Part shown: piece by piece, positions 14,496 through 48,543 of the stretch | Numbering within the stretch: the stretch's first letter is position 1 | Layout: each line of letters starts with the position of its first letter | Source: Bacteroidetes bacterium GWE2_42_24 | GTDB lineage: Bacteria; Bacteroidota; Bacteroidia; Bacteroidales; TTA-H9 | DNA length: 64,000 nt | Assembly: GCA_001768515.1 (NCBI GenBank) | Contig: MEOA01000010.1 | Location: 64,161 to 128,160, forward strand | Direction of reading: 5' to 3' | The notes under the pieces: model-generated | The model's database searches: none | What the model was told of the DNA's origin: nothing | What the model saw: only the letters and a program-made list of their open reading frames with translations | Made by a program: the position numbers and the translations under genes

Positions 14496-14975
14496 AATAG
14501 CTTATAAATCAGTCTTTCCATTAACATAGCATAATGCTGGTATACTCCGGCGTCAGTTACCCGCGATGTTGAATTCAAACTTATTACTTCCAAATATCCT
14601 GTTTAAAACAACAACCAGTACAGGGCTTTTTCGTACAGCTCGCATTACTGCAATTGTTTGGCAGTAATACAGTCAATCATGATAGATAAGACTCCTGCCG
14701 GTAGTGGGTAAATGAAAGGGTATGGCATCTGCACTTAACGCCATCGTTTTCTTTTGCCGGATAGTTATATCAACCCCTTATTGCCATATTTCGACAATAT
14801 ATTGATTAAAATTCAGGATCATCAGACACACTGATGTGAAAAGCTCTGCCTGGATTGCACTAACAATCAACTATTGGATGCCGCTGGATGATAGGTCTAT
14901 ATCAATTCCGCCGACAGCCACATAGAACTATTTCATATCCTCAAATTTTAGAGCCGGTTTGCGTTAAAATCAGCA

Positions 14976-15111
14976 AAAAACCCACATTATTCTACAACAA
15001 AACAACAAATATTCAAAATACTGATTAACAGGGGTAAAATATAGTGTCGCTTCGTTGTCGCTTCGAAGCGGCTTCGAAGCGGCTTCGTATTTTTTCGAAA
15101 CGATAACGAAG
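14976..15111 (+). repeat. 136-nt non-coding element, copy A (19-mer + four 11-nt GCTTCG units)
   Basis: A hand alignment without gaps to 47968-48103 gives 105 of 136 identical positions. AAAAACCCACATTATTCTA is identical in both copies. Units tcGCTTCGttg, tcGCTTCGaag, cgGCTTCGaag and cgGCTTCGtat lie at 15047-15090. Confidence 0.8.
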
Positions 15112-15885
15112 CCATTATGAACAAGCCCCGAATGAAATATAACTTAGGTATAATTTATGTAAGAAGAAGAGAGGAGCAGTTTTTTAACCTGAAAAGTAAA
15201 ATCAGTGAGAGAGGTTTATGCTTCTTGCTCGGAAGCAAAGAAACCGGCGCCATCTGGCATAAGCTGATGGATTGATTGTTAATAAATTAATGGCAAGCAT
15301 CGGGGAATAGCTGCATGAAAAGATGCACCTTTCGTCTGTAATTTGCCAATAATTCCCACATCAAAAAAGGCTGGCTTTCAAACAGGATGAAAACAGAAAA
15401 AGTTGTGACTTATCGAATCTGAAGGGCTACGACTGGTTATCTTTGCACAGCAAAACACCTTTTGTATTCCATTCCATTACGTATTGGAACACGGACATAA
15501 CCTACTTCAGTTCCATCTGGAATATGAGACCTTATATCGATCAGTAAATATTTTCATGTTATGGTGGAGAGGAGCTTCCTGCGATAAAAACCATTACCCT
15601 TCATAACTATTGGCCTTTATACTGTTCATGCAATTCGGGGCAGAACCTCAAATAGTTAACTTGCAGAAATCAAAAAAGATATTGAACGCTAATCGATAGG
15701 CTCCAAAAGACTTCTTTGTCTTATTAGTATGATTTACATTCGGAGAAAAATCACAATATGACCTCGGAATTGACCTCAATTAAAAGTCTGATTAACTGGC
15801 AAATAAGCTTCAGGATATACGAAAAGAGGAAGGGCGATTAACCAGAAACCGGAGAGAAACAATGATGAACAGACAAAACAGTGTT

Positions 15886-38792: not shown

Positions 38793-38943
38793 CCCTTCCT
38801 ATTTCCTTGCTTTCAGCATCTCAACGAAAAACCATTCAACATTATTCAATAAATAGGATTACTATTTTCAGCCCCAGCCACCGGCAATTATTGAAAAATC
38901 TAATACCCGGATATATTTAACAATCCTGCCTTAGCTAAAGATT

Positions 38944-40119
38944 TCAATCTTCACCTTCCATCTCAGGTAAATCCTTTACATAAGATGCATACTTGTCATC
39001 CTGTAATAGACTATCCTTTACTGCCTTTAATTGTCGCATGAGCGGGCGTTTGTATATAAATCCTGCCTTTGCCCTTCTTCTATCCGTGTCATCGTATCCG
39101 CTCAAATCAACATTATCCTCTTTTGAAGCATTCACCAGATCTATTTCTTCGGCTAAAACATCAAAAAGTTCCTTTGTCTCATTAGAATTAACGGCGAAAA
39201 ATCTAATTTGCTTTAATATCTCATTAGGCAGAGCATAAGGCCAATATTCATCGAAACGTCGGTCATAATGCCAGCCTCCTTGTTTGAAGTTTCTAATTAC
39301 TATTTTTTGAAGAATAATCGTTTCCAAAGAAACAGGAGCATTTCTCGAAAAAGCTTCCTTAATACTAACAACCTGATTAACTGAACTATCGGTATACCAT
39401 TTCTTCAACATGTTAATTGTCGCATTATCAAACTGAATTCCATATTCAGCTTTTGATCTAGACATTTCCTGATCAATATATTGGTAGTCTTTTTCAAACC
39501 TATGGAGGTATATACTATTGAGCCTTCCCTGATTCACAGATGTAGACACTTTAAGCGTAAATGCTGTCAGAATGCAAAGTACAAAGGATAATAAAATCCA
39601 CTTTTCCGAACGATAAACAAGCCTTACTGAAGCCCAACTTTGCATAAATATTACGATTGGCATCAGGATAAATAATATCTGATAATCTTCATACAGGTTA
39701 AAATAATTGTCATAGCCAGCCATTCCATATAAAACAATTGGCGGGATTGAGCCAAAGCGTGCAATTACCATTAAAATGACCCAAAAAATCAATAAAGCAT
39801 TTGATACTGCCAACTGTTTATACATTCTATCTAATCTACGATTATGAGTATGATTGCTCATCCAGATCCAAATGGTAATTGAAAATCCTAAAGTTGTTGC
39901 AAGGGTTGAAAAAAAATAATTAAAAAAAAGTAATTCATTATCCTTCAATATCAGTAAGTCAGTTGACATACTAGTGAAATACCGGTAAACTTCTCTAAAA
40001 TGATTAAATACCAATGCAATTAAAAACGCGGTAAAAAGTCCAGCGAAAATCCCCATCCAAAATCTATTTCGGCCGATGCTTTGAATAGATAAGTGATCTT
40101 TAACAAATCTTTTCGTCAT
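38944..40119 (-). CDS. hypothetical polytopic membrane protein with soluble C-terminal domain
   Basis: 391 aa: about 5-6 hydrophobic helices in the first 200 aa, then a hydrophilic 190-aa domain. No motif I recognise. AT-rich codon usage. Confidence 0.55.
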   Translation of the reverse strand: MTKRFVKDHLSIQSIGRNRFWMGIFAGLFTAFLIALVFNHFREVYRYFTSMSTDLLILKDNELLFFNYFFSTLATTLGFSITIWIWMSNHTHNRRLDRMYKQLAVSNALLIFWVILMVIARFGSIPPIVLYGMAGYDNYFNLYEDYQILFILMPIVIFMQSWASVRLVYRSEKWILLSFVLCILTAFTLKVSTSVNQGRLNSIYLHRFEKDYQYIDQEMSRSKAEYGIQFDNATINMLKKWYTDSSVNQVVSIKEAFSRNAPVSLETIILQKIVIRNFKQGGWHYDRRFDEYWPYALPNEILKQIRFFAVNSNETKELFDVLAEEIDLVNASKEDNVDLSGYDDTDRRRAKAGFIYKRPLMRQLKAVKDSLLQDDKYASYVKDLPEMEGED

Positions 40120-40302
40120 TTTGGTTTACTGTTCAATAGTATGAGATAACGATGGGTAAATAATGCGGATCGAATTTCGGAAAGTGCTAATGCCTGGTAA
40201 AGCTAAACTGGGACTCAAAATTACTCATAGTATAGTACACCGATCAAACTCAATAATATTTCCGTTGAAAGCGTTTCACACTTTACTATATTAGCCTATT
40301 CC

Positions 40303-40725
40303 TTATTCAATAAATTCATTTTCAATTCCCTCAAGTGTTGCAGATATCTTATGCCTCCAGTCTGATACTGTCTTTACATTCACACCGAGAGTTTTAGCTG
40401 CCTTCCTTACCGGAATATTCCCAACTATCATCTTGGTGTACTGATGGAACAAATCCGGTCTTTTTAGGTATGCACCCGCTGTTCCTGTTAAGTCATTAAA
40501 CGTCTTTAAACATGCCATGCACCTATACCGCTTTCTTCCCTTATAGATACCATGTCCAATAATACTTGTGCTTTTGCAGTGGGGACATTGAATCAACTGA
40601 TCCCTGTTGGGTTCAGATTTGATTAAACCCAGGTTCTCCTCTGAATTCAAATCTGATTCCAGACGATGGTACAAATCTATTTTATCCTGAATACTAAGCC
40701 GTGATAGTATTGTCTCAATTTTCAT
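40303..40725 (-). CDS. IS1595/IS1-like zinc-ribbon + HTH protein (transposase N-terminal module only)
   Basis: CPHCKS..17 aa..YRCMACLKTF zinc ribbon, followed by an HTH-like segment (VRKAAKTLGVNVKTVSDWRHKI). No DDE domain follows in any frame. Confidence 0.55.
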   Translation of the reverse strand: MKIETILSRLSIQDKIDLYHRLESDLNSEENLGLIKSEPNRDQLIQCPHCKSTSIIGHGIYKGRKRYRCMACLKTFNDLTGTAGAYLKRPDLFHQYTKMIVGNIPVRKAAKTLGVNVKTVSDWRHKISATLEGIENEFIE

Positions 40726-40792
40726 CTTTAAAAGGTTTAGGTTTCACATAAAACAAATACTTGCATCATAAGTAAGACCTAAGCATATACAC

Positions 40793-42103
40793 CTAATTCA
40801 TCCCCTCAGGAAAGGAAGGAGAAAAAACAAACACATCCTCTCCCTTTTTCAAGCCAAAGCCTTTTGATATCGTTTTTGACTCCAAAAGTTTCCGCTCGCT
40901 GTATGTTTTAAACAATATATTGCGTAACCACGAATAATAGGTTGCCTGATTACCAAAACGGCTCAAAGAAACGCTGGCCTGCGTGAACCGGGATTTATCA
41001 AGATTAACAATGGCCTCAACAGCTAATGGTATTTCCGGCATCTTATACCGCGATGATGAACCTGGCCCATAAATCTTCCAGTAAACTCGATAACTCAGGA
41101 TCCCTTGACTAGCTGTGAAATCATACTGCCATTCTGCAAACGACATATCAAAATCAGCGGTAGTTTGCCACGATAACACAGGCCATTCCGTTGATTCAAA
41201 ACTGAATGTCCCATCGATGCCAGTAAATACCGATGGTATAACACCCAGCGTTTCAGACGACAAGGTAGCTTCATCAGAGGCATTATAACAAGAAACAGAA
41301 GTAAAAAAGGTTGTAAATAAACCACCTGAAGGATACCAGACAACGCTATTCAACTCAAGATGAGGATTGTAATCGAGAAGATACAGTGGCACGGAAATTG
41401 GTTCTGTTTCAAATGACCCAGAGATCCGGGCAGAGAAGAGAGTTAAAGCAGGGTCGGCCGTTAATGCTATCTCTTGAAGTGGAGTTGTTTCCTGTAAGTC
41501 AATATCGTAGTTACCGGTCTGAGGTGCAACCGATACCATCTTGTAAAATCCCTGACCTGATTCCTTTTCTATTTTAACGTAAAACTTATCGGAGGACGGA
41601 ACAGATGGCACATCAAACTGACAGCCTTCCGCCGGCCTAAAGATTCTTGATGATACACCTGCTGAAATAATCCCGATGGAACCAGGCTGAAGCGAGGGTC
41701 TGTTTATCAGGTTGACTCTTGCATGCCCAGAACTAAAGTCGTACCCTCCCGAAAGGTTAAAAGTCCCTCCCGGAAGGCTGTAAAATGATGTAATATAAGG
41801 CACCCTGGCCAAGCTCAAAGAGTATTGAACTATTGTAAGCGTTACCGAATCGGGCCAATGCACTCCCGATGGTGGTTCAAAAACCACGCTTCCGGGGCCA
41901 CACTGCCATTTTCCAGCTAAAAAAGCACCGTCAGCCGTGCTAATCATGTAATAAACAGAATCCTCAAGGTTAAGAAAGTTATCGTTAACGATCAGAGTCA
42001 TCGGAAAAGGAACAGACTCGGTATAAACCTCCTCTTCTTTGTCGCTGCACGCGAAAAGAAACACAAGTAACGTGAAAAGTGAAAAAATGGAATTGATTTT
42101 CAT
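40793..42103 (-). CDS. hypothetical lipoprotein
   Basis: The internal Met gives MKINSIFSLFTLLVFLFAC, a lipoprotein signal peptide with lipobox Cys. 436 aa, beta-rich, no recognisable motif. Confidence 0.6.
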   Translation of the reverse strand: MKINSIFSLFTLLVFLFACSDKEEEVYTESVPFPMTLIVNDNFLNLEDSVYYMISTADGAFLAGKWQCGPGSVVFEPPSGVHWPDSVTLTIVQYSLSLARVPYITSFYSLPGGTFNLSGGYDFSSGHARVNLINRPSLQPGSIGIISAGVSSRIFRPAEGCQFDVPSVPSSDKFYVKIEKESGQGFYKMVSVAPQTGNYDIDLQETTPLQEIALTADPALTLFSARISGSFETEPISVPLYLLDYNPHLELNSVVWYPSGGLFTTFFTSVSCYNASDEATLSSETLGVIPSVFTGIDGTFSFESTEWPVLSWQTTADFDMSFAEWQYDFTASQGILSYRVYWKIYGPGSSSRYKMPEIPLAVEAIVNLDKSRFTQASVSLSRFGNQATYYSWLRNILFKTYSERKLLESKTISKGFGLKKGEDVFVFSPSFPEGMN

Positions 42104-42375
42104 AGCGTATTGCAGTAGATTAATAATAACCGGAGCCTGATATCTCAGCCCCAATAATAATCAGTTAAGAATATAAGCACAAATCTATAGCTTTTTATTT
42201 ACGAAAGCATTTTTAACCAGCGAATTTATATACCGTTTCATCCTTTATGTTTGGTCTACATGGAACTGTGTGAAAAATAATCCTATCTTCAATATGCCCA
42301 AAAAACCAAATTTTTACACACAAACCCGGAAGAATCAGTTAACTTAACATCATCCTCATCCTTTCAACTAATCAT

Positions 42376-43797
42376 TCAATCAACTGTTTTGTTTTTTATA
42401 AAACTCAATGCCGTTTCGAGTACAGTATCCACGCCTTTGCGAAAATCGTCAATTGTAAGATGTGACTCTAAATCGGGTTTTATTCCAACGCCAACAAACT
42501 CCCGACCATCCGGGTATATATCCTTTTTCGAACATATTGACAACAAACCACCATAGGGGAGATTCCACGTAATGGGGTTACCGGTACTACCGGCTGTCAT
42601 TTCGCCAATTAGCGTAATGTGTTTTTGATTGTCGCAAAACACAAGAAAATCTTCAGCAGCCGAGTAGGTTTGATGCCCGATAAGAATAACGGTAGGAACA
42701 ACATGGCGCTCGCGCTCGACGTTAAAAGTAAAATTAGACTCTCCTCCCTTTTCATAATACCTATGATTAGCTATTTCGAAGAGTACTTTGTTTTCCCTAT
42801 TCTCTATAGTGTCATTTGAATTAACACGCATCCCCCATGACATCTGATCAGGTTTATGTACACGAGTATACCATGAAGCCCCAACAAGATCATTATCGGG
42901 TGTAAGTCGGCTAAGTATCTGTGCAGCATAGCTGGTATTTCCGCCACTATTGTTCCGAATATCTATTATCAATCTTTTCGCGCGTTCCTTAAGCTCGGGA
43001 AAAATAGCTTCAAAGTCATCAACAACCTGCTTGCTGTTAAATGAGTTGATAGCAATATAGGCCACATCGCCCTGATACCATTTTAATTCTACAAATTTCC
43101 ACTCCTTGCCAACCGGAATCATTGTATCATTTTTAATATCGGGGGGAAAATCATGAATCACATGTGTTACAATTTTGTCACCCTTTGGTGTCAGAAAAGT
43201 AATATCATAAGGATCATATCTCAGCGAACAAAATAATCCACTAATCGATTCGTCATTTAAATAATGTTTTGTTGAGGAACTTTTATAGGGCATAATTGCT
43301 TCCTCCATATACCTGGACGTTGGCAAACCATTAACCGCTACTATCTCACTACCAAAAGGAATCCAATTACTTTGCTTACTACTTATTTGTGACACCATAG
43401 CCCGCCCTTCAACGGGCTTAACAATAATTTGGAATTTGTCAAAAAAGGTAGTAACGGTTGGATTGTATTCATAATAAACATAGGAGTGGCCATCTTTTAA
43501 CATTGCACAGTAACGGCTTAACAGGCGATAGCATTCGTTATCACTCTCTGACTCCATAACTGGCTTTATCATTGCCAGATACAGACTATCCCATGCCTTC
43601 TCACCCACATTATCAAAAAATGCCTCATTATACTTAGCCTCTGACCAGACTTTCGACAGCGCATACAATTTATCCCCGGGTGTCATATAGGTATTAATCC
43701 CATAAGGGATTTTTTGCTGTTGTGCTTTAGACGCTAATATTGACGCAAAAAAGAATACAGTTAATAGAAATTTGTTCATTAGAATATTTTTAAACAT
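42376..43797 (-). CDS. S41-family (tail-specific/Tricorn C1-like) peptidase, secreted
   Basis: Met at 43797 gives signal peptide MFKNILMNKFLLTVFFFASILASKAQQ. IDIRNNSGGN and SAAEDF motifs are typical of peptidase S41. Confidence 0.7.
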   Translation of the reverse strand: MFKNILMNKFLLTVFFFASILASKAQQQKIPYGINTYMTPGDKLYALSKVWSEAKYNEAFFDNVGEKAWDSLYLAMIKPVMESESDNECYRLLSRYCAMLKDGHSYVYYEYNPTVTTFFDKFQIIVKPVEGRAMVSQISSKQSNWIPFGSEIVAVNGLPTSRYMEEAIMPYKSSSTKHYLNDESISGLFCSLRYDPYDITFLTPKGDKIVTHVIHDFPPDIKNDTMIPVGKEWKFVELKWYQGDVAYIAINSFNSKQVVDDFEAIFPELKERAKRLIIDIRNNSGGNTSYAAQILSRLTPDNDLVGASWYTRVHKPDQMSWGMRVNSNDTIENRENKVLFEIANHRYYEKGGESNFTFNVERERHVVPTVILIGHQTYSAAEDFLVFCDNQKHITLIGEMTAGSTGNPITWNLPYGGLLSICSKKDIYPDGREFVGVGIKPDLESHLTIDDFRKGVDTVLETALSFIKNKTVD

Positions 43798-44421
43798 GGT
43801 TTTACAATATTTATCGAAATCTAATAAGCTATGTAGTTTTGGCAAATTTTGATTGATGTTTTGCTAATATAATTATATCCTGATATTTTCATTCTTCACT
43901 TTCAATAGGATTTCCTCAAATATCTTATTAACGCCAGCGTTGAGATTCAATTTCATGGTACAGGGTAGGTTGCTGCCAACTGTGGAGGTTTTGCGCCTTC
44001 GACGGCTTGCCGGAATAAAATCAGCAAAATAACCTCAACCGCTACTTCATATTGGCGAAAGTTAAACTGAACATCCGATTTCGTGCCTCAAAAGTTTCCG
44101 TAATCCACGGGTTGAAAAACAAAAAAAAAGAACCAATTATTGCATTCGAGATGATGTCACGATAGAAAAGAACTCTTAAAATGCCCAACACGCAAAGATA
44201 TAAAAAGCTCTTGATTAATATTCACATGGAAATTCAATGGAAACTCTCTTCTACTAAGAACCATAAGTACCCCTTGATAAAATGCCTGTACTTTAAATCA
44301 AACCTACGATTGATTAATGCCCCTATGTGCATTACACAAACCGACACAACAAACTACACATTTTAAAACGCCATAATTGCAGATGGTTTCGTTCAATACC
44401 TCCTTAAACTATAGCCACAGG

Positions 44422-45014
44422 TTACGATGTGCAATTCATCGACCGCGCCTGTAAATGCTCTATATTATATACCTCTTCTTTTAACTTATAAATCAACCAA
44501 ACATACCCATCTTTCAACATTTCACAATGTGTACATTCCCATGCGATTTTCGCATCTATTCCCTCGAAAAGGTTTCGGGAACTATTCCCAAGTATTTCGG
44601 GTGAAATGAGACGACTAATTTCATCAATCAAGTCGCTGTTTATCAAAACATTTTCAAGTTTGCTCCCCGTATCAGCCAGTATCTTTCCTATCGAACATTT
44701 TTCTGCCAACTGATTTATGGCCTTTCCATAATCTAAAGGCTTTCTTTTGCTATGATGTAGTCGTATTGCCTTTCATCCAAATACTTTATGTAATCAGATG
44801 GAGTAGATTCTGAAACCAGTATGATAATATTCCCACTGTAATCAAGTCTACAGTAATGATGCAAAAGTCCTTTTAAAGTTCCTTTTGTATCAGGTATAAT
44901 CCAAGATGAAAGAGACTTATCCTTATCAGATCTTAAAAAATCCGCCAGCATCTCTGATTGCAACGTTTGTCCAAACATCGTAATTCCGGATTTTGCAGTA
45001 ATAGAACCAAACAT
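44422..45014 (-). pseudogene. frameshifted dihydrofolate-reductase-like (RibD C-terminal domain) gene
   Basis: ORFs 44733..45014 and 44422..44709 are the N- and C-halves of one RibD_C-like protein (C-half: SDLIDEISRLISPEILGNSSRNLFEG...GYVWLIY). They lie in different frames, with the shift near 44710-44740. Confidence 0.55.
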
Positions 45015-45186
45015 TTAGCCCTCAGTTCTATAAGAACTAACAATATGATAATGCAACTCCATATTTGGGTTCAACCCAATAAAGGCACAATCCATACTTA
45101 TTGAATTGTGCAAAATTACTTTTGAATTCATAACCTATTTCGACATAGCGGATGCCGCTAATTTGTTTCAGTATGGTTTAATTCAA

Positions 45187-45783
45187 TTATATTAAAACAA
45201 AGCCATAAGGCATGGGTACAGTGAAATTCTTTTCGTCCTTAAATTGACTTATTCTGTCGATTGAACGTTGTCCCTGAACATTAACTTTCTGAAAAAGTTC
45301 TTCATAGTCATGGAAAAACTGAACGGTTTCGTATTGCTGTATTTTTTTTATATTAAATCTCTTTAAAGTTTCCCAACTATTTATCACTTTTTCCGTCTCA
45401 TCAGCAATATATGCCCATTCTGAGTTTGGCCAATGATCACAAATAAGAACACCTGGAGCCATCGTTAATGCGTGATTTATAGCTGCTTCAGGGCTTTTCA
45501 TTTCATGAAGACAAAATTCAAACATAACGATATCTCCTTTCCTATTTACAAGAATAAAATCTGAATTAATGAGAGTATACTTATCTAAAAGTTTTGATTT
45601 TTCAAGGCTATCTTTAAGCTTTCCAAGTGCTTCTTTATCATTGTCAATTGCGATTACTTTTTTCGAAGCGCGCCCATATTCAATAAATTGGCCGCCTCCG
45701 GCACCGACTGAAATGATCGTCTGATCATCAAAGTCATAGAATGCAAAAAGATTCGCTATAATTTTCTTTATGTCTGTAGCCAT
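45187..45783 (-). CDS. class I SAM-dependent methyltransferase
   Basis: 198 aa; motif I ISVGAGGGQFIEY followed by an acidic motif II (AIDND). Confidence 0.7.
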   Translation of the reverse strand: MATDIKKIIANLFAFYDFDDQTIISVGAGGGQFIEYGRASKKVIAIDNDKEALGKLKDSLEKSKLLDKYTLINSDFILVNRKGDIVMFEFCLHEMKSPEAAINHALTMAPGVLICDHWPNSEWAYIADETEKVINSWETLKRFNIKKIQQYETVQFFHDYEELFQKVNVQGQRSIDRISQFKDEKNFTVPMPYGFVLI

Positions 45784-45876
45784 AGCTTTACGATTATATC
45801 TCTAAATCTATTCTAAATGTTGCGACTGTTAGTATTCGGAGACGCACCACGTCGCGAAACAGATTATATTGACCGG

Positions 45877-46497
45877 TCAGGAATTATCATTTTTTGTTAC
45901 AACAACAAATAGCATTGGCATTATACCTTCAACAAAAGCACTTTTCTCCAGATTATAGCCACATGCCGAAATAAATTTTATCAAACTCTTAGAATCGAAT
46001 CTTGTGTTTATTGGATGACCTTTGATTTCCATAATTTTTGAAATAATCTTCGTCTTGATACTCTCATTATGTAAAAATGTTGGAACAATCAATTTACCGT
46101 TTTTCTTTAAAAGCCTCTTAATTGAATTTAAGAATTGCTCAGGCCTGTCTAAGAGATGCAAGAGATTTGAAACAATAATAATATCAAACATTTCATCGTT
46201 AAAACTCAGATTATAACAATCCTGTACTTGAAATGATATATTATTTATGTGTAGTCTTTCAATTTTTAGATTAGCAATATTAACCATCTCCTGTGAAAAG
46301 TCGGTTGCAACAATCTTTTCCACAGAATCAGCCAATGCAATCGGTATTTCTCCGGTTCCGGTTCCAATATCTAAAAGAGTTTGAGCCTTATTGCTCTCTT
46401 TTATAATTAACTCAATAATTTTAGAGTAAGAATTCTTAGATTTCTTCAGGTGATTGTCATAATCAGATGCTTTTTTGTCCCAATAATTTGTTTCCAT
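45877..46497 (-). CDS. class I SAM-dependent methyltransferase (Methyltransf_11/UbiE-like)
   Basis: 206 aa; motif I LLDIGTGTGEIPIALA, ATDFS, and post-motif LKKNGKLIV. Confidence 0.75.
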   Translation of the reverse strand: METNYWDKKASDYDNHLKKSKNSYSKIIELIIKESNKAQTLLDIGTGTGEIPIALADSVEKIVATDFSQEMVNIANLKIERLHINNISFQVQDCYNLSFNDEMFDIIIVSNLLHLLDRPEQFLNSIKRLLKKNGKLIVPTFLHNESIKTKIISKIMEIKGHPINTRFDSKSLIKFISACGYNLEKSAFVEGIMPMLFVVVTKNDNS

Positions 46498-46684
46498 TTT
46501 TTAAATATTAATTTTTAAGACAGATATTCTGAATGATTTTCAGTTCGAGAGACCTGAAAACTGAAAGGATAATCTGCTGATGACACATCATTACTCCCGC
46601 ATCGACTTACTCCGTAATGTAGTCCCGGGCGTTGCACCTGACCAGGCTGCATGCTTATGTACTATTTAATAGCAGAAGGCTGTA

Positions 46685-47296
46685 CTACTTAAATTTAATT
46701 GTGATTAAAAAATAGTGCGGAATTTTAAAATGTTCTCCTAATTTTTCAGGCATTACATCTGACTGAGCAACTTCACAGTATGAGGACGAGCCGTCTTTGT
46801 GAATTGTTGGAGTAATTATTGCTAATATGGCGTTACCTTTTTCGGTTAGTCGAAGAGTAAGTTCACTGTTTCTACCAAAAAAGTCTTTTAAAGCATAATC
46901 ATCTGTATTACTATTCAAATCGAAATACATTCTTTTGCTTTCAAAATTTTTTCCAATAATAAGTGTCTTCAATTTTTCTTTCTCCAACTTGAAATAGAAT
47001 TTTAAGGACAATTTGCTCCCCCTGATCATAAAAAAGTCAGACTCAGAAGCATCAAATAATGAGGTGTTTTTTACGAAATTGCCATCTTTGTATTCCTGCA
47101 AATTTATTTCGTAATATTTTCCATTCAACGTATCATTTTCAAAAATGAGTTTCTCTATAAAAACACCTTCAAAATCAATCAGATTCTGTATTTCTTCATT
47201 TCTACTTCCATACTCGCTTGTTAATCTCACGGTTTTTTGGGCAAAAGCGAAATTCGAGATTAGAACCAGTGCTAATACTATTTTCTTCGACTTCAT
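46685..47296 (-). CDS. hypothetical secreted protein
   Basis: 203 aa with signal peptide MKSKKIVLALVLISNFAFAQ. Very AT-rich; no recognisable motif. Confidence 0.5.
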   Translation of the reverse strand: MKSKKIVLALVLISNFAFAQKTVRLTSEYGSRNEEIQNLIDFEGVFIEKLIFENDTLNGKYYEINLQEYKDGNFVKNTSLFDASESDFFMIRGSKLSLKFYFKLEKEKLKTLIIGKNFESKRMYFDLNSNTDDYALKDFFGRNSELTLRLTEKGNAILAIITPTIHKDGSSSYCEVAQSDVMPEKLGEHFKIPHYFLITIKFK

Positions 47297-47967
47297 GTTT
47301 TATTTTGTTGGAAATTCATGCTACCAGTATTTATATACCCCCAAAAAGTCATTGCAATTCTCTTATTTCGCTCTTACAACAGTTACTTTGAGGCGATTAT
47401 TTCTTTCTGAAACACTTGTTTAGAACGCTGCAACCTTGCATACCAAATAACAATTTACTGTGCGCTTTATTGCTTTCATAGGTGAAAATCTCCGAAGATT
47501 TGCTACTCCTGTGCCCTCTATGCCGCAAGCCGGTGCCGCCTTCCGGAAAATACCTGGAATAACAGATCCACAGCCACCACAACCTGACCGGGATGATTGA
47601 TTTTGCTTTTACCAAGCCTGCTTCGCAATACCCTGTACACTCTTTCCGCTGTAACACGCTCCGGTACCAAAAAGCACTAAAAATGATATAGCAAATGAAA
47701 ATTACGCCAGTTTTCCACAGCCTGAGAAGTAAGTTACCTGTGTTGATCGGTTTATAATACCACGATCAAAAAGATGGCGCAAGGCCATTCCAGGTCATCT
47801 CTCTTGATCAGCATTCCAGCTCATGAAGTTCACCGCAATGGAAAATCATGTCTGGTCTGGCCATACAATCAATAATGGAATGCTGCCGGTTGGTCGCGTC
47901 ATCTAAACGCTATTGCCCGTGGCCTCAAACTATCAAAATCAAAGGTCAGTATGAACGAAAATATCCC

Positions 47968-48103
47968 AAAAACCCACATTATTCTAAAACAAAACACAAA
48001 ACACCGAAAATGCTGACAAACAGAGGACAAACTTAACACCCCTTCGTTCTCGCTTCGAAGTAGCTTCGAAGTAGCTTCGTCAATTTTCGAAGCAAAAACG
48101 AAG
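47968..48103 (+). repeat. 136-nt non-coding element, copy B
   Basis: Same orientation and exact length as copy A. Units ccCCTTCGttc, tcGCTTCGaag, taGCTTCGaag and taGCTTCGtca lie at 48039-48082. My reading agrees with the ORF-track translations of 47848..48036 and 47899..48132, which cross it. Confidence 0.8.
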
Positions 48104-48543
48104 AGGCTTTGGAAATACTTCGGAACAACCATAGCTTTGGTCTAACCAAATTAACTTGATGCGGGTATTCACTTTTATGGAAACCGTATACTATGATGTA
48201 TCGCTCAACCTGTATCTGATACTGTTGCGCGGAGGGAAGAGCGTGCCCGGGCTGTATAAACGGGACTCCAACCCTTAAAAAAGTATGTTTATTGAGATAT
48301 GGTATCCTGAAACACGAGAGGCCAGGAAGCGGACAAAATGGACGATGGAGTTACAAAATGATCGCCCTGAAGCCAAATTGAACAGATGTAATGAAATACG
48401 TTGTTTTCAGGAAGCGGTAATATCAAACCAGATGTAATACAGCGAAAAATGCATCCTGCAACCACCGGTAAAATTAATACGGCCGGGGAGATCAACACCA
48501 TCAGGCTCAGAAATCATAACCAGCACATCATGACTACCACAGA

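Follow-up and report, generated by a model that had tools for sequence, protein, structure and literature searches.

Two copies of a non-coding element, here called copy A and copy B, are present in the window, i.e. the 64,000-nucleotide stretch of contig MEOA01000010.1 of Bacteroidetes bacterium GWE2_42_24 that was analysed (Table 1). Copy A is located in an ORF-free gap of 1.39 kb between the gene for a DUF6132 protein, found downstream of a thioredoxin gene, and the convergent gene yjbR. Copy B is located in a gap of 1.25 kb between a gene for a hypothetical protein of 203 amino acids and the 3' end of priA. The two copies have one orientation, are separated by 32,992 nt, and the end of copy B was found to lie 441 nt from the priA stop (48544), which agrees with an earlier estimate of about 440 bp. 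The region between divIC and priA that has copy B at its right edge (approximately 38800–48543) is AT-rich. Its genes, which all lie on the minus strand, mostly encode proteins without Pfam hits; two methyltransferases and one S41 peptidase are also encoded there. A search of the window for tRNA and tmRNA genes gave none.

Table 1. Features of copies A and B and of their surroundings (positions are those of the window).
Feature	Position	Strand	Basis or remark
Copy A core	14976..15111	+	Alignment to copy B; match to core profile
Extended copy A (leader and tail common to class-1 members)	14678..15480		Alignments of ~69-71% identity
Lineage-specific inserted region, copy B at its priA-proximal edge	38800..48543		Left border approximate, after divIC
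Leader-side extension of copy B, common to some members	47805..47967		Alignments with L152 and L165
Spurious ORF, 62 aa, over copy B	47848..48036	+	No conserved frame among copies
Spurious ORF, 77 aa, over copy B	47899..48132	-	No conserved frame among copies
Copy B core (19-mer box, leader, phased array)	47968..48103	+	105/136 without gaps against copy A; core profile E = 2e-38
19-mer box AAAAACCCACATTATTCTA	47968..47986	+	Same in copies A and B; at least 90% conserved at most positions in 22 copies
Leftward -7-like box TAAGTTTG (top strand CAAACTTA)	48028..48035	-	TAnnTTTG-type; fixed offset +53/54
Phased array: CTTCGTT / CTTCGAAG x2 / CTTCGT, T-rich dyad centre, TTCGAAG, AACGAAG	48042..48103		Spacings
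-33-like TTCG, bottom strand of unit 2	48056..48059	-	20 nt upstream of leftward -7-like box
Copy B tail, constrained non-coding DNA to the priA stop	48104..48543		72% against L173, no indel
Rightward promoter-like site TTTG-N20-TAGCTTTG, copy B only	48108..48139	+	Motif match; kept in L173

The two copies had been aligned by hand in the first-pass annotation of this DNA, with a count of 105 identities over 136 positions and no gap. This count was exact on recomputation, and an alignment with MAFFT also introduced no gaps. The 19-mer and the 11-nt unit TCGCTTCGAAG have the same letters in both copies, as had been read, and the spacer triplets were confirmed as CGG,CGG in copy A and TAG,TAG in copy B with the CTTCGAAG cores intact in each. 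A correction is needed in that the variation within each triplet is confined to its last two bases, the unit being G-C-T-T-C-G-A-A-G-Y-N (57 units). BLAST pieces shared by the two copies within the window are collinear, with E values of 7e-9 (29 nt) and 3e-5 (39 nt), and CTTCGAAG occurs six times in the window against 0.9 expected, with four of the six inside copies A and B. The similarity between the copies is beyond chance.

The sequence flanking the 136 nt had been described as dissimilar on both sides. This has to be amended for approximately 45 nt upstream and for a TAnCTTnGGT block approximately 35 nt downstream, both of which align. The conserved unit exceeds 136 nt, extending from about -50 to +250 in every member and over as much as about 800 nt in copy A, to which class-1 members align at 14678–15391 (L165), 14746–15476 (L157) and 14974–15480 (L172). 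Alignments to copy B cover 47805–48080 (L152) and 47843–48079 (L165), with many copies starting at approximately 47933. The two ORFs crossing copy B had been suspected of being artefacts, and they are, as ORFs over the conserved block use all three frames and either strand, depending on the copy. A protein-coding element was rejected, all three frames being used in different copies with no frame conserved.

At least 26 distinct copies of the element, copies A and B included, were identified in a few metagenomes and related assemblies. A scan of metagenomes with CTTCGAAGHNDCTTCGAAGHNDCTTCG returned 49 loci, approximately 26 of them with the whole element, and the full-element loci were mostly on long contigs of metagenome Ga0209319. 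A consensus of 22 full copies reads cAAAAaCCCACATTATTCTAnaACAAA, about 20 variable nt, cTGAnanACAGnggtcAAAcATAnnntCg, the array, TTCGTnTTtTnaCGAAnCnAnAACGaA and a short hairpin with an ACTTTGG-like loop. The copies have their grammar in common: the 19-mer box, which is near-invariant, is followed by a leader that keeps its length (68–69 nt between box and first TTCG), by the array with its TTCG/CGAA sites and by a tail, with four copies, termed class-3, having no 19-mer leader. Each of the copies is intergenic, in an ORF-free gap of 0.8–1.6 kb, and its flanking genes were seen in every orientation. Among the family loci no recurrent neighbour gene was found, be it for a protein family accompanying the element, which had been raised as a possibility beforehand, or for a cognate binding protein adjacent to the copies. 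The intergenic location in all orientations and the lack of a recurrent neighbour indicate that the element is self-contained.

No match to the element was obtained with Rfam at gathering score for the window and 15 family loci, and a permissive threshold applied to both intergenic gaps gave a single Ocean-V match at chance level. No family member was found in viral contigs or in phage and plasmid collections, nor were further copies found in the 9.6 kb past the right end of the window, and a literature search on the motif returned only primer noise. A scan of species-representative genomes for the 13-mer together with CTTCGAAG gave only four chance matches. The host lineage seems to be absent from that collection, and the box of the copy A orthologue carries a 1-nt deletion. 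The identities of PriA homologues are 90, 80 and 72% and then drop straight to 55% or less, which indicates that the host belongs to a thinly sampled Bacteroidota lineage. The inserted non-coding elements of this uncultured lineage form a hitherto undescribed family, to which copy B genuinely belongs. Four Logan short-read contigs (L120, L121, L173, and L179) end inside or at the array, which fits a multi-copy repeat breaking assembly graphs. As the element breaks short-read assemblies and seeds spurious ORF calls, its recognition improves the annotation of these MAGs.

Some other sequences were seen in the course of these searches. An FMN riboswitch (L157, 3320–3442) and a SAM-II riboswitch (L149, 7969–8028) are ordinary, several kb from the elements and unrelated to them. 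Around the class-3 copy of L153, three DnaA-box-like sequences, including a perfect TTATCCACA, lie within about 300 nt on either side of the array, which is probably a coincidence. Unrelated tandem arrays with a CTTCGAAG core and a period of 11 nt were found on short metagenome contigs (L131, L132, L136; L139, L141, L151; L142, L171; L147), examples being (CAGCTTCGAAG)n between CCAGCTTCGAA units and (AAACTTCGAAG)n with at least five units. The viral pattern GCTTCGAAGNNGCTTCGAAG was present at 113 loci (L001–L113), compared with 19 and 1 for two control palindromes. These 113 matches were rejected as family members and represent an unrelated phage family, in which arrays of 11-nt units, (GCTTCGAAGGG)n, often lie inside a conserved ORF (...YYLP..HETGLGFEGASKGL...; e.g. 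L023, 9914–9933 and 10169–10188). A second phage array, in the opposite orientation and approximately 250–290 bp off, is found beside (CTCCTGTTCCTG)n repeats. The arrangement resembles that of origin iterons located within or close to the gene of a replisome organiser.

The surroundings of the two copies of the window were compared with those of related loci. Copy B is kept at the same site in L173, of which PriA is 90% identical. From the priA stop into the array, 494 nt are 72% identical between the two without any indel, compared with 43.5% identity at the four-fold sites of priA. The copy B region therefore evolves approximately three times slower than synonymous sites and is under purifying selection. 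Within the tail, mismatches are distributed over the codon phases as 42/46/48 and stops occur in every frame, i.e. there is no codon periodicity, and the consensus RNA structure of the tail and its orthologue (z = +0.1 and +1.3) showed nothing above shuffled controls. These 440 nt are conserved without indel against the orthologue, yet carry no coding or RNA structure signal. Several hundred intergenic bases under purifying selection with neither coding capacity nor detectable RNA structure are rare in bacteria. Copy A is kept in the gap between trx/DUF6132 and yjbR of L178 (YjbR 87% identical), where the copy has two additional units (55 nt against 33 nt) and flanks which cannot be aligned. 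Both orthologous copies thus persist although synonymous sites are near saturation.

More distant relatives have neither copy. In L175 (PriA 72% identical) priA and divIC are 109 nt apart, and the whole 9.7 kb (~38.8–48.5 kb) including copy B is absent; in L201 (YjbR 68% identical, same synteny) yjbR and DUF6132 are 13 nt apart with no copy between them. Each copy is therefore polymorphic for presence or absence with an intact empty site. The absence from such compact junctions places both copies of the window in inserted DNA, between convergent genes, and bears out the earlier suggestion that the element marks junctions of insertion or deletion. The modules are mosaic between copies, and the core of copy A is 85% identical to that of L140, an unrelated locus, and only 77% identical to that of its own orthologue, which suggests that modules are exchanged. 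Conservation could in part reflect gene conversion between copies.

The array is the most regular part of the element. Its CG centres are spaced 11, 11, 11, (11, 11), 10 and 11 nt apart in every copy (11, 11, 11, 10, and 11 in copy B), with the 10-nt step at the T-rich dyad. The distance from the first TTCG to the TTCG of the dyad is 33 nt in 12 copies, 44 nt in three and 55 nt in seven, with no other value in 22/22 copies, so that the length of the array is conserved only modulo 11. A repeat of one helical turn thus keeps its phase when the number of units changes. The exact conservation of length between copies A and B had been taken to indicate a spacing or structural constraint. The spacing constraint is real in the form of helical phase, but the absolute length is not a property of the family, copies A and B both belonging to the commonest length class (12/22 copies). 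The order of sites is also fixed, with left-type or full palindromes followed by left half-sites, the 10-nt T-rich step and right half-sites, giving 6–9 phased sites per element, with a full palindrome at unit 2 in each of the copies.

Counted over 57 full units, the base matrix reads G(55) C(46)/G(11) T T C G A A G(55) Y(T38/C19) N. The TTCGAA is invariant in 57/57 units, though the copies are only about 65–80% identical overall; position 10 is always a pyrimidine and position 11 is free. Conservation of the core is thus base-specific with free spacers, in keeping with the proposal that the cores are the constrained part. Longer arrays contain degenerate extra units (e.g. CGTTTGTAGCT) with substitutions and never with an indel breaking the phase, and the absence of a gain or loss of 1–2 nt in such units points to selection on phase and not to slippage alone. 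The alternative proposal, that spacers are homogenised within each copy, found modest support, with identical spacers in 16/50 pairs (permutation p = 0.03). The pattern of spacers which match within a copy and differ between copies was seen again in the comparison of copy A (CG,CG) with its orthologue in L178 (CA,CA,TG), but it is not universal, as many copies have TA,CG or TG,TA,CG. The matching spacers are most simply explained by units being turned over through slippage or duplication.

Such turnover could be all there is to the array, which would then be a selfish or neutral minisatellite in decaying repeat DNA, with an 11-nt unit that slips and nothing that is specifically recognised. Multiples of 11 are an automatic product of slippage, the number of units varies even between the orthologues described above and identical spacers are frequent in adjacent units. 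This explanation is considered very improbable, since the TTCG cores and the 19-mer are invariant where other positions have diverged by 20–35%, the half-sites keep a fixed grammar (L or LR units, 10-nt step, R units) and the copy B region shows the slow, indel-free evolution relative to synonymous sites noted for L173. Two other candidates were tried for the array and discarded. A CRISPR-like array, with unique spacers of ~25–40 nt, was rejected as the units abut and only 2 nt vary, and avoidance of TTCGAA as a restriction site was rejected with 33 sites observed against 19 expected.

Whether the palindromic units would act at the level of DNA or as RNA or single-stranded DNA was addressed by structure prediction. 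In the latter case the units would fold into several hairpins and serve as a terminator, as an element for processing or stability, or as an RNA bound by protein, and predicted folds are indeed strong (z = -3.6 to -6.6). The palindromes of 8–10 bp give very stable predicted hairpins (z = -4.3 to -4.7), which counts against a reading in terms of double-stranded DNA only, the pair G1:Y10 is only ever G:C or G:U, a terminator-like hairpin with T-run was flagged in copies A and B, and copy A lies between convergent genes. RNAalifold, applied to 26 copies, gave three helices with 17 pairs; 13 of these pairs never vary, no pair shows a compensatory change, and for covariation the core scores the same as the shuffles. 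The earlier idea of cores as stems with the triplet as a loop gains no support from these values, as a mere stem would tolerate compensatory changes, whereas base-specific invariance is what a binding protein predicts. Furthermore, the minimum-energy folds of copies A and B differ, and the pyrimidine at position 10 is kept even where the fold would make it a loop base.

An intrinsic terminator was rejected, the T-run being the loop of the TTCGT...ACGAA dyad and not a 3' tail; copy B has no upstream plus-strand gene, and the orientations of neighbouring genes are mixed among copies, every one of them being found. In the leaders and tails (class-1 tail; class-1a leader, both strands) no consensus structure beyond controls was detected, with consensus energies of -0.2, -5.0, and -4.2 kcal/mol, and the lack of a match in Rfam also speaks against a structured RNA. 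Action as RNA or single-stranded DNA is therefore thought to be quite improbable. The invariance of the core, the free spacers and the absence of compensatory change favour sequence-specific recognition of double-stranded DNA over RNA folding.

In another explanation, a mobilising enzyme supplied in trans (for instance a transposase, a recombinase or a rolling-circle HUH Rep) would recognise the array and the 19-mer as its cis-sites. This would make the element mobile but non-autonomous, and its conservation would reflect element-level selection for competence in transposition and not a function for the host. Phased enzyme-binding repeats are known from the ends of Tn7 and Mu. Besides the compact empty junctions and the mosaic modules, this explanation is favoured by L133 and L154, which have in common a sharply bounded unit of 636 nt (-386 to +249) of 92% identity within unrelated flanks. 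It is also favoured by the island beside copy B, which encodes on the minus strand (40303–40725) a stand-alone protein of 140 amino acids resembling the N-terminal Zn-ribbon and HTH of IS1595/ISXO2 transposases, without a DDE domain. This protein has 2352 relatives at E <= 0.001, many of ~300–340 amino acids with DDE_Tnp_IS1595, and in L133, at the contig end, a homologue of its N-terminus (21 amino acids) starts ~590 nt from the element.

Against mobilisation stand the absence of significant inverted matches between the ends of six copies, and thus of terminal inverted repeats, and of any target-site duplication found. The copies are old (65–80% identity), with cores intact even in positional orthologues with saturated synonymous sites, viral contigs, phages and plasmids contain no family member, and in approximately 350 kb of family flanks no transposase-like gene was found besides that of the window. 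The IS1595-like small protein as a consistent neighbour was not supported. Mobilisation by such an enzyme is accordingly regarded as rather unlikely. Two further repeats were observed at family loci. A segment of 426 nt with 93% identity lies to the left of the element in L133 (-2253..-1828) and to the right in L154 (+1668..+2093), which points to either a rearrangement that has the element at its breakpoint or a second copy close by. In L157 a 21-nt direct repeat, GGCT(A/G)TCAA(A/T)CAGAATAAATG, is found at -329..-309 and +414..+434 from the start of the 13-mer, which places one repeat close to each outer border of the long class-1 form; related sequence is present at the right border of other class-1 copies.

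Promoter-like sites were also detected in and beside the array. The promoter consensus of Bacteroidota quoted by Ryan et al. (PMC7366714) has TAnnTTTG as its -7 box and TTTG near position -33. A box of the form TA(T/A)(G/A)TTTG is found at one fixed minus-strand offset in 17/22 copies, and its spacing to the TTCG of the array is 20 nt in every copy with the box. The box is imperfect in copy A (TATATTTT) and missing in the four class-3 copies without the 19-mer. Both boxes of the rightward site of copy B are conserved in the orthologue L173. From the fixed promoter-like sites overlapping the array, the core is interpreted as a putative regulated promoter cassette firing outward. The leftward -33 reads TTCG and not the consensus TTTG, and the rightward box is weak or absent in most copies, both of which count against this interpretation. 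A sigma-54 promoter was rejected, with TGGCAC present in some tails and no downstream TTGC in those tails by eye, and so was a DnaA-box or origin reading, with only weak similarity to the box and a GC skew that is monotonic across the window.

Our preferred explanation, which is tentative and to which we give somewhat less than an even chance, is a phased protein-binding array acting at the DNA level and coupled to outward promoters, carried on an insertion-derived element. Copy B is one of the dispersed, modular non-coding elements, with leader, 11-nt array and tail, and its 136-nt core would act as double-stranded DNA. The array would offer TTCG/CGAA half-sites, with full CTTCGAAG palindromes in the centre and single half-sites at the edges. 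As the sites are one helical turn apart, they would all face one side of the helix and would form a docking platform on which a DNA-binding protein, sequence-specific and probably a dimer, binds cooperatively. The conserved leftward site, which resembles a sigma-A-type promoter, has its -33 within the array, and in copy B the second, rightward promoter-like site lies just beyond the array; transcription running outward into the non-coding leader and tail would consequently depend on whether the array is occupied.

If the array is such a platform, it represents a new cis-element whose grammar is unusually clean (invariant tetramer, strict 11-nt phase, dyad switch), and a synthesised array could be used directly to fish the binder from a poorly known Bacteroidota lineage. 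More speculatively, the family could constitute genome-wide "landing pads" for one dedicated protein that, bound to their phased arrays, switches in concert the outward promoters of long ncRNAs, constrained in sequence but unstructured, or organises the chromosome. This extension is judged unlikely as it stands; if true, a mobile element would have been domesticated into a lineage-specific regulatory or architectural system, in which the length of the array is adjusted by whole turns of the helix.

Several known systems resemble the element in part. BOX elements of Streptococcus pneumoniae, with the structure boxA - boxB(n) - boxC, are likewise dispersed, intergenic and modular with variable internal units and mosaic copies. 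They can affect the expression of neighbouring genes. They differ from the present family in that they are thought to act via RNA secondary structure, in belonging to another phylum, in units of ~45 nt and in lacking a rule of helical phase. Among protein-bound arrays, the parC site of plasmid R1 contains ten 11-bp iterons around the par promoter, bound by the ribbon-helix-helix protein ParR, and the omega and ParG arrays and the met-boxes of MetJ are likewise repeat arrays bound by ribbon-helix-helix proteins. The likeness consists of units of about one turn, tolerance of direct and inverted half-sites, cooperative filament-like binding and overlap with a promoter. These arrays adjoin the gene of their binder on plasmids or in operators, whereas the present copies are many, chromosomal and without an adjacent cognate gene.

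The "bind" locus of pMV158 has three 11-bp direct repeats bound by RepB, plus a nick hairpin. The combination of 11-bp direct repeats near a hairpin with a conserved loop is found here as well, the array being followed by a hairpin whose loop is of the ACTTTGG type. To our knowledge this loop sequence is not a known nick site, and the present element differs in having no Rep gene, a chromosomal multi-copy setting and a hairpin register that varies between classes. Sites of the OmpR/PhoB/ArcA type are direct repeats of 2–5 units with 11 bp from centre to centre. They share the 11-bp phasing, and their units likewise vary in number and lie upstream of promoters or overlap them, but they are not palindromic and not part of a dispersed repeat element.

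The closest described element is the BrickBuilt MITE of Porphyromonas gingivalis, which occurs in approximately 19 copies, always intergenic, with a narrow host range within Bacteroidota (Klein et al., 2015; PMC4596501). It consists of a leader of up to 285 nt, a variable-number tandem repeat and a tail of up to 318 nt, with a total length of 84–991 nt, some copies without leader or tail and spurious ORF calls over the element (PMC4596501). The present family is also multi-copy, strictly intergenic, arranged as leader, repeat and tail, and found in Bacteroidota. BrickBuilt has bidirectional promoter activity shown experimentally (PMC4596501), a likeness that is based here on motifs, with the leftward box in 17/22 copies and the full rightward site only in copy B. 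Its units are of 23 nt, in up to 22.8 copies, with no palindromic core and with small terminal inverted repeats (PMC4596501). In contrast, the present family has 11-nt units, the invariant palindromic core CTTCGAAG, a grammar of dyad and half-sites in strict phase and no inverted-repeat ends found in six copies. These four differences, in unit, core, grammar with phase, and ends, set the family apart by description as a modular interspersed intergenic repeat which is not a member of BrickBuilt.
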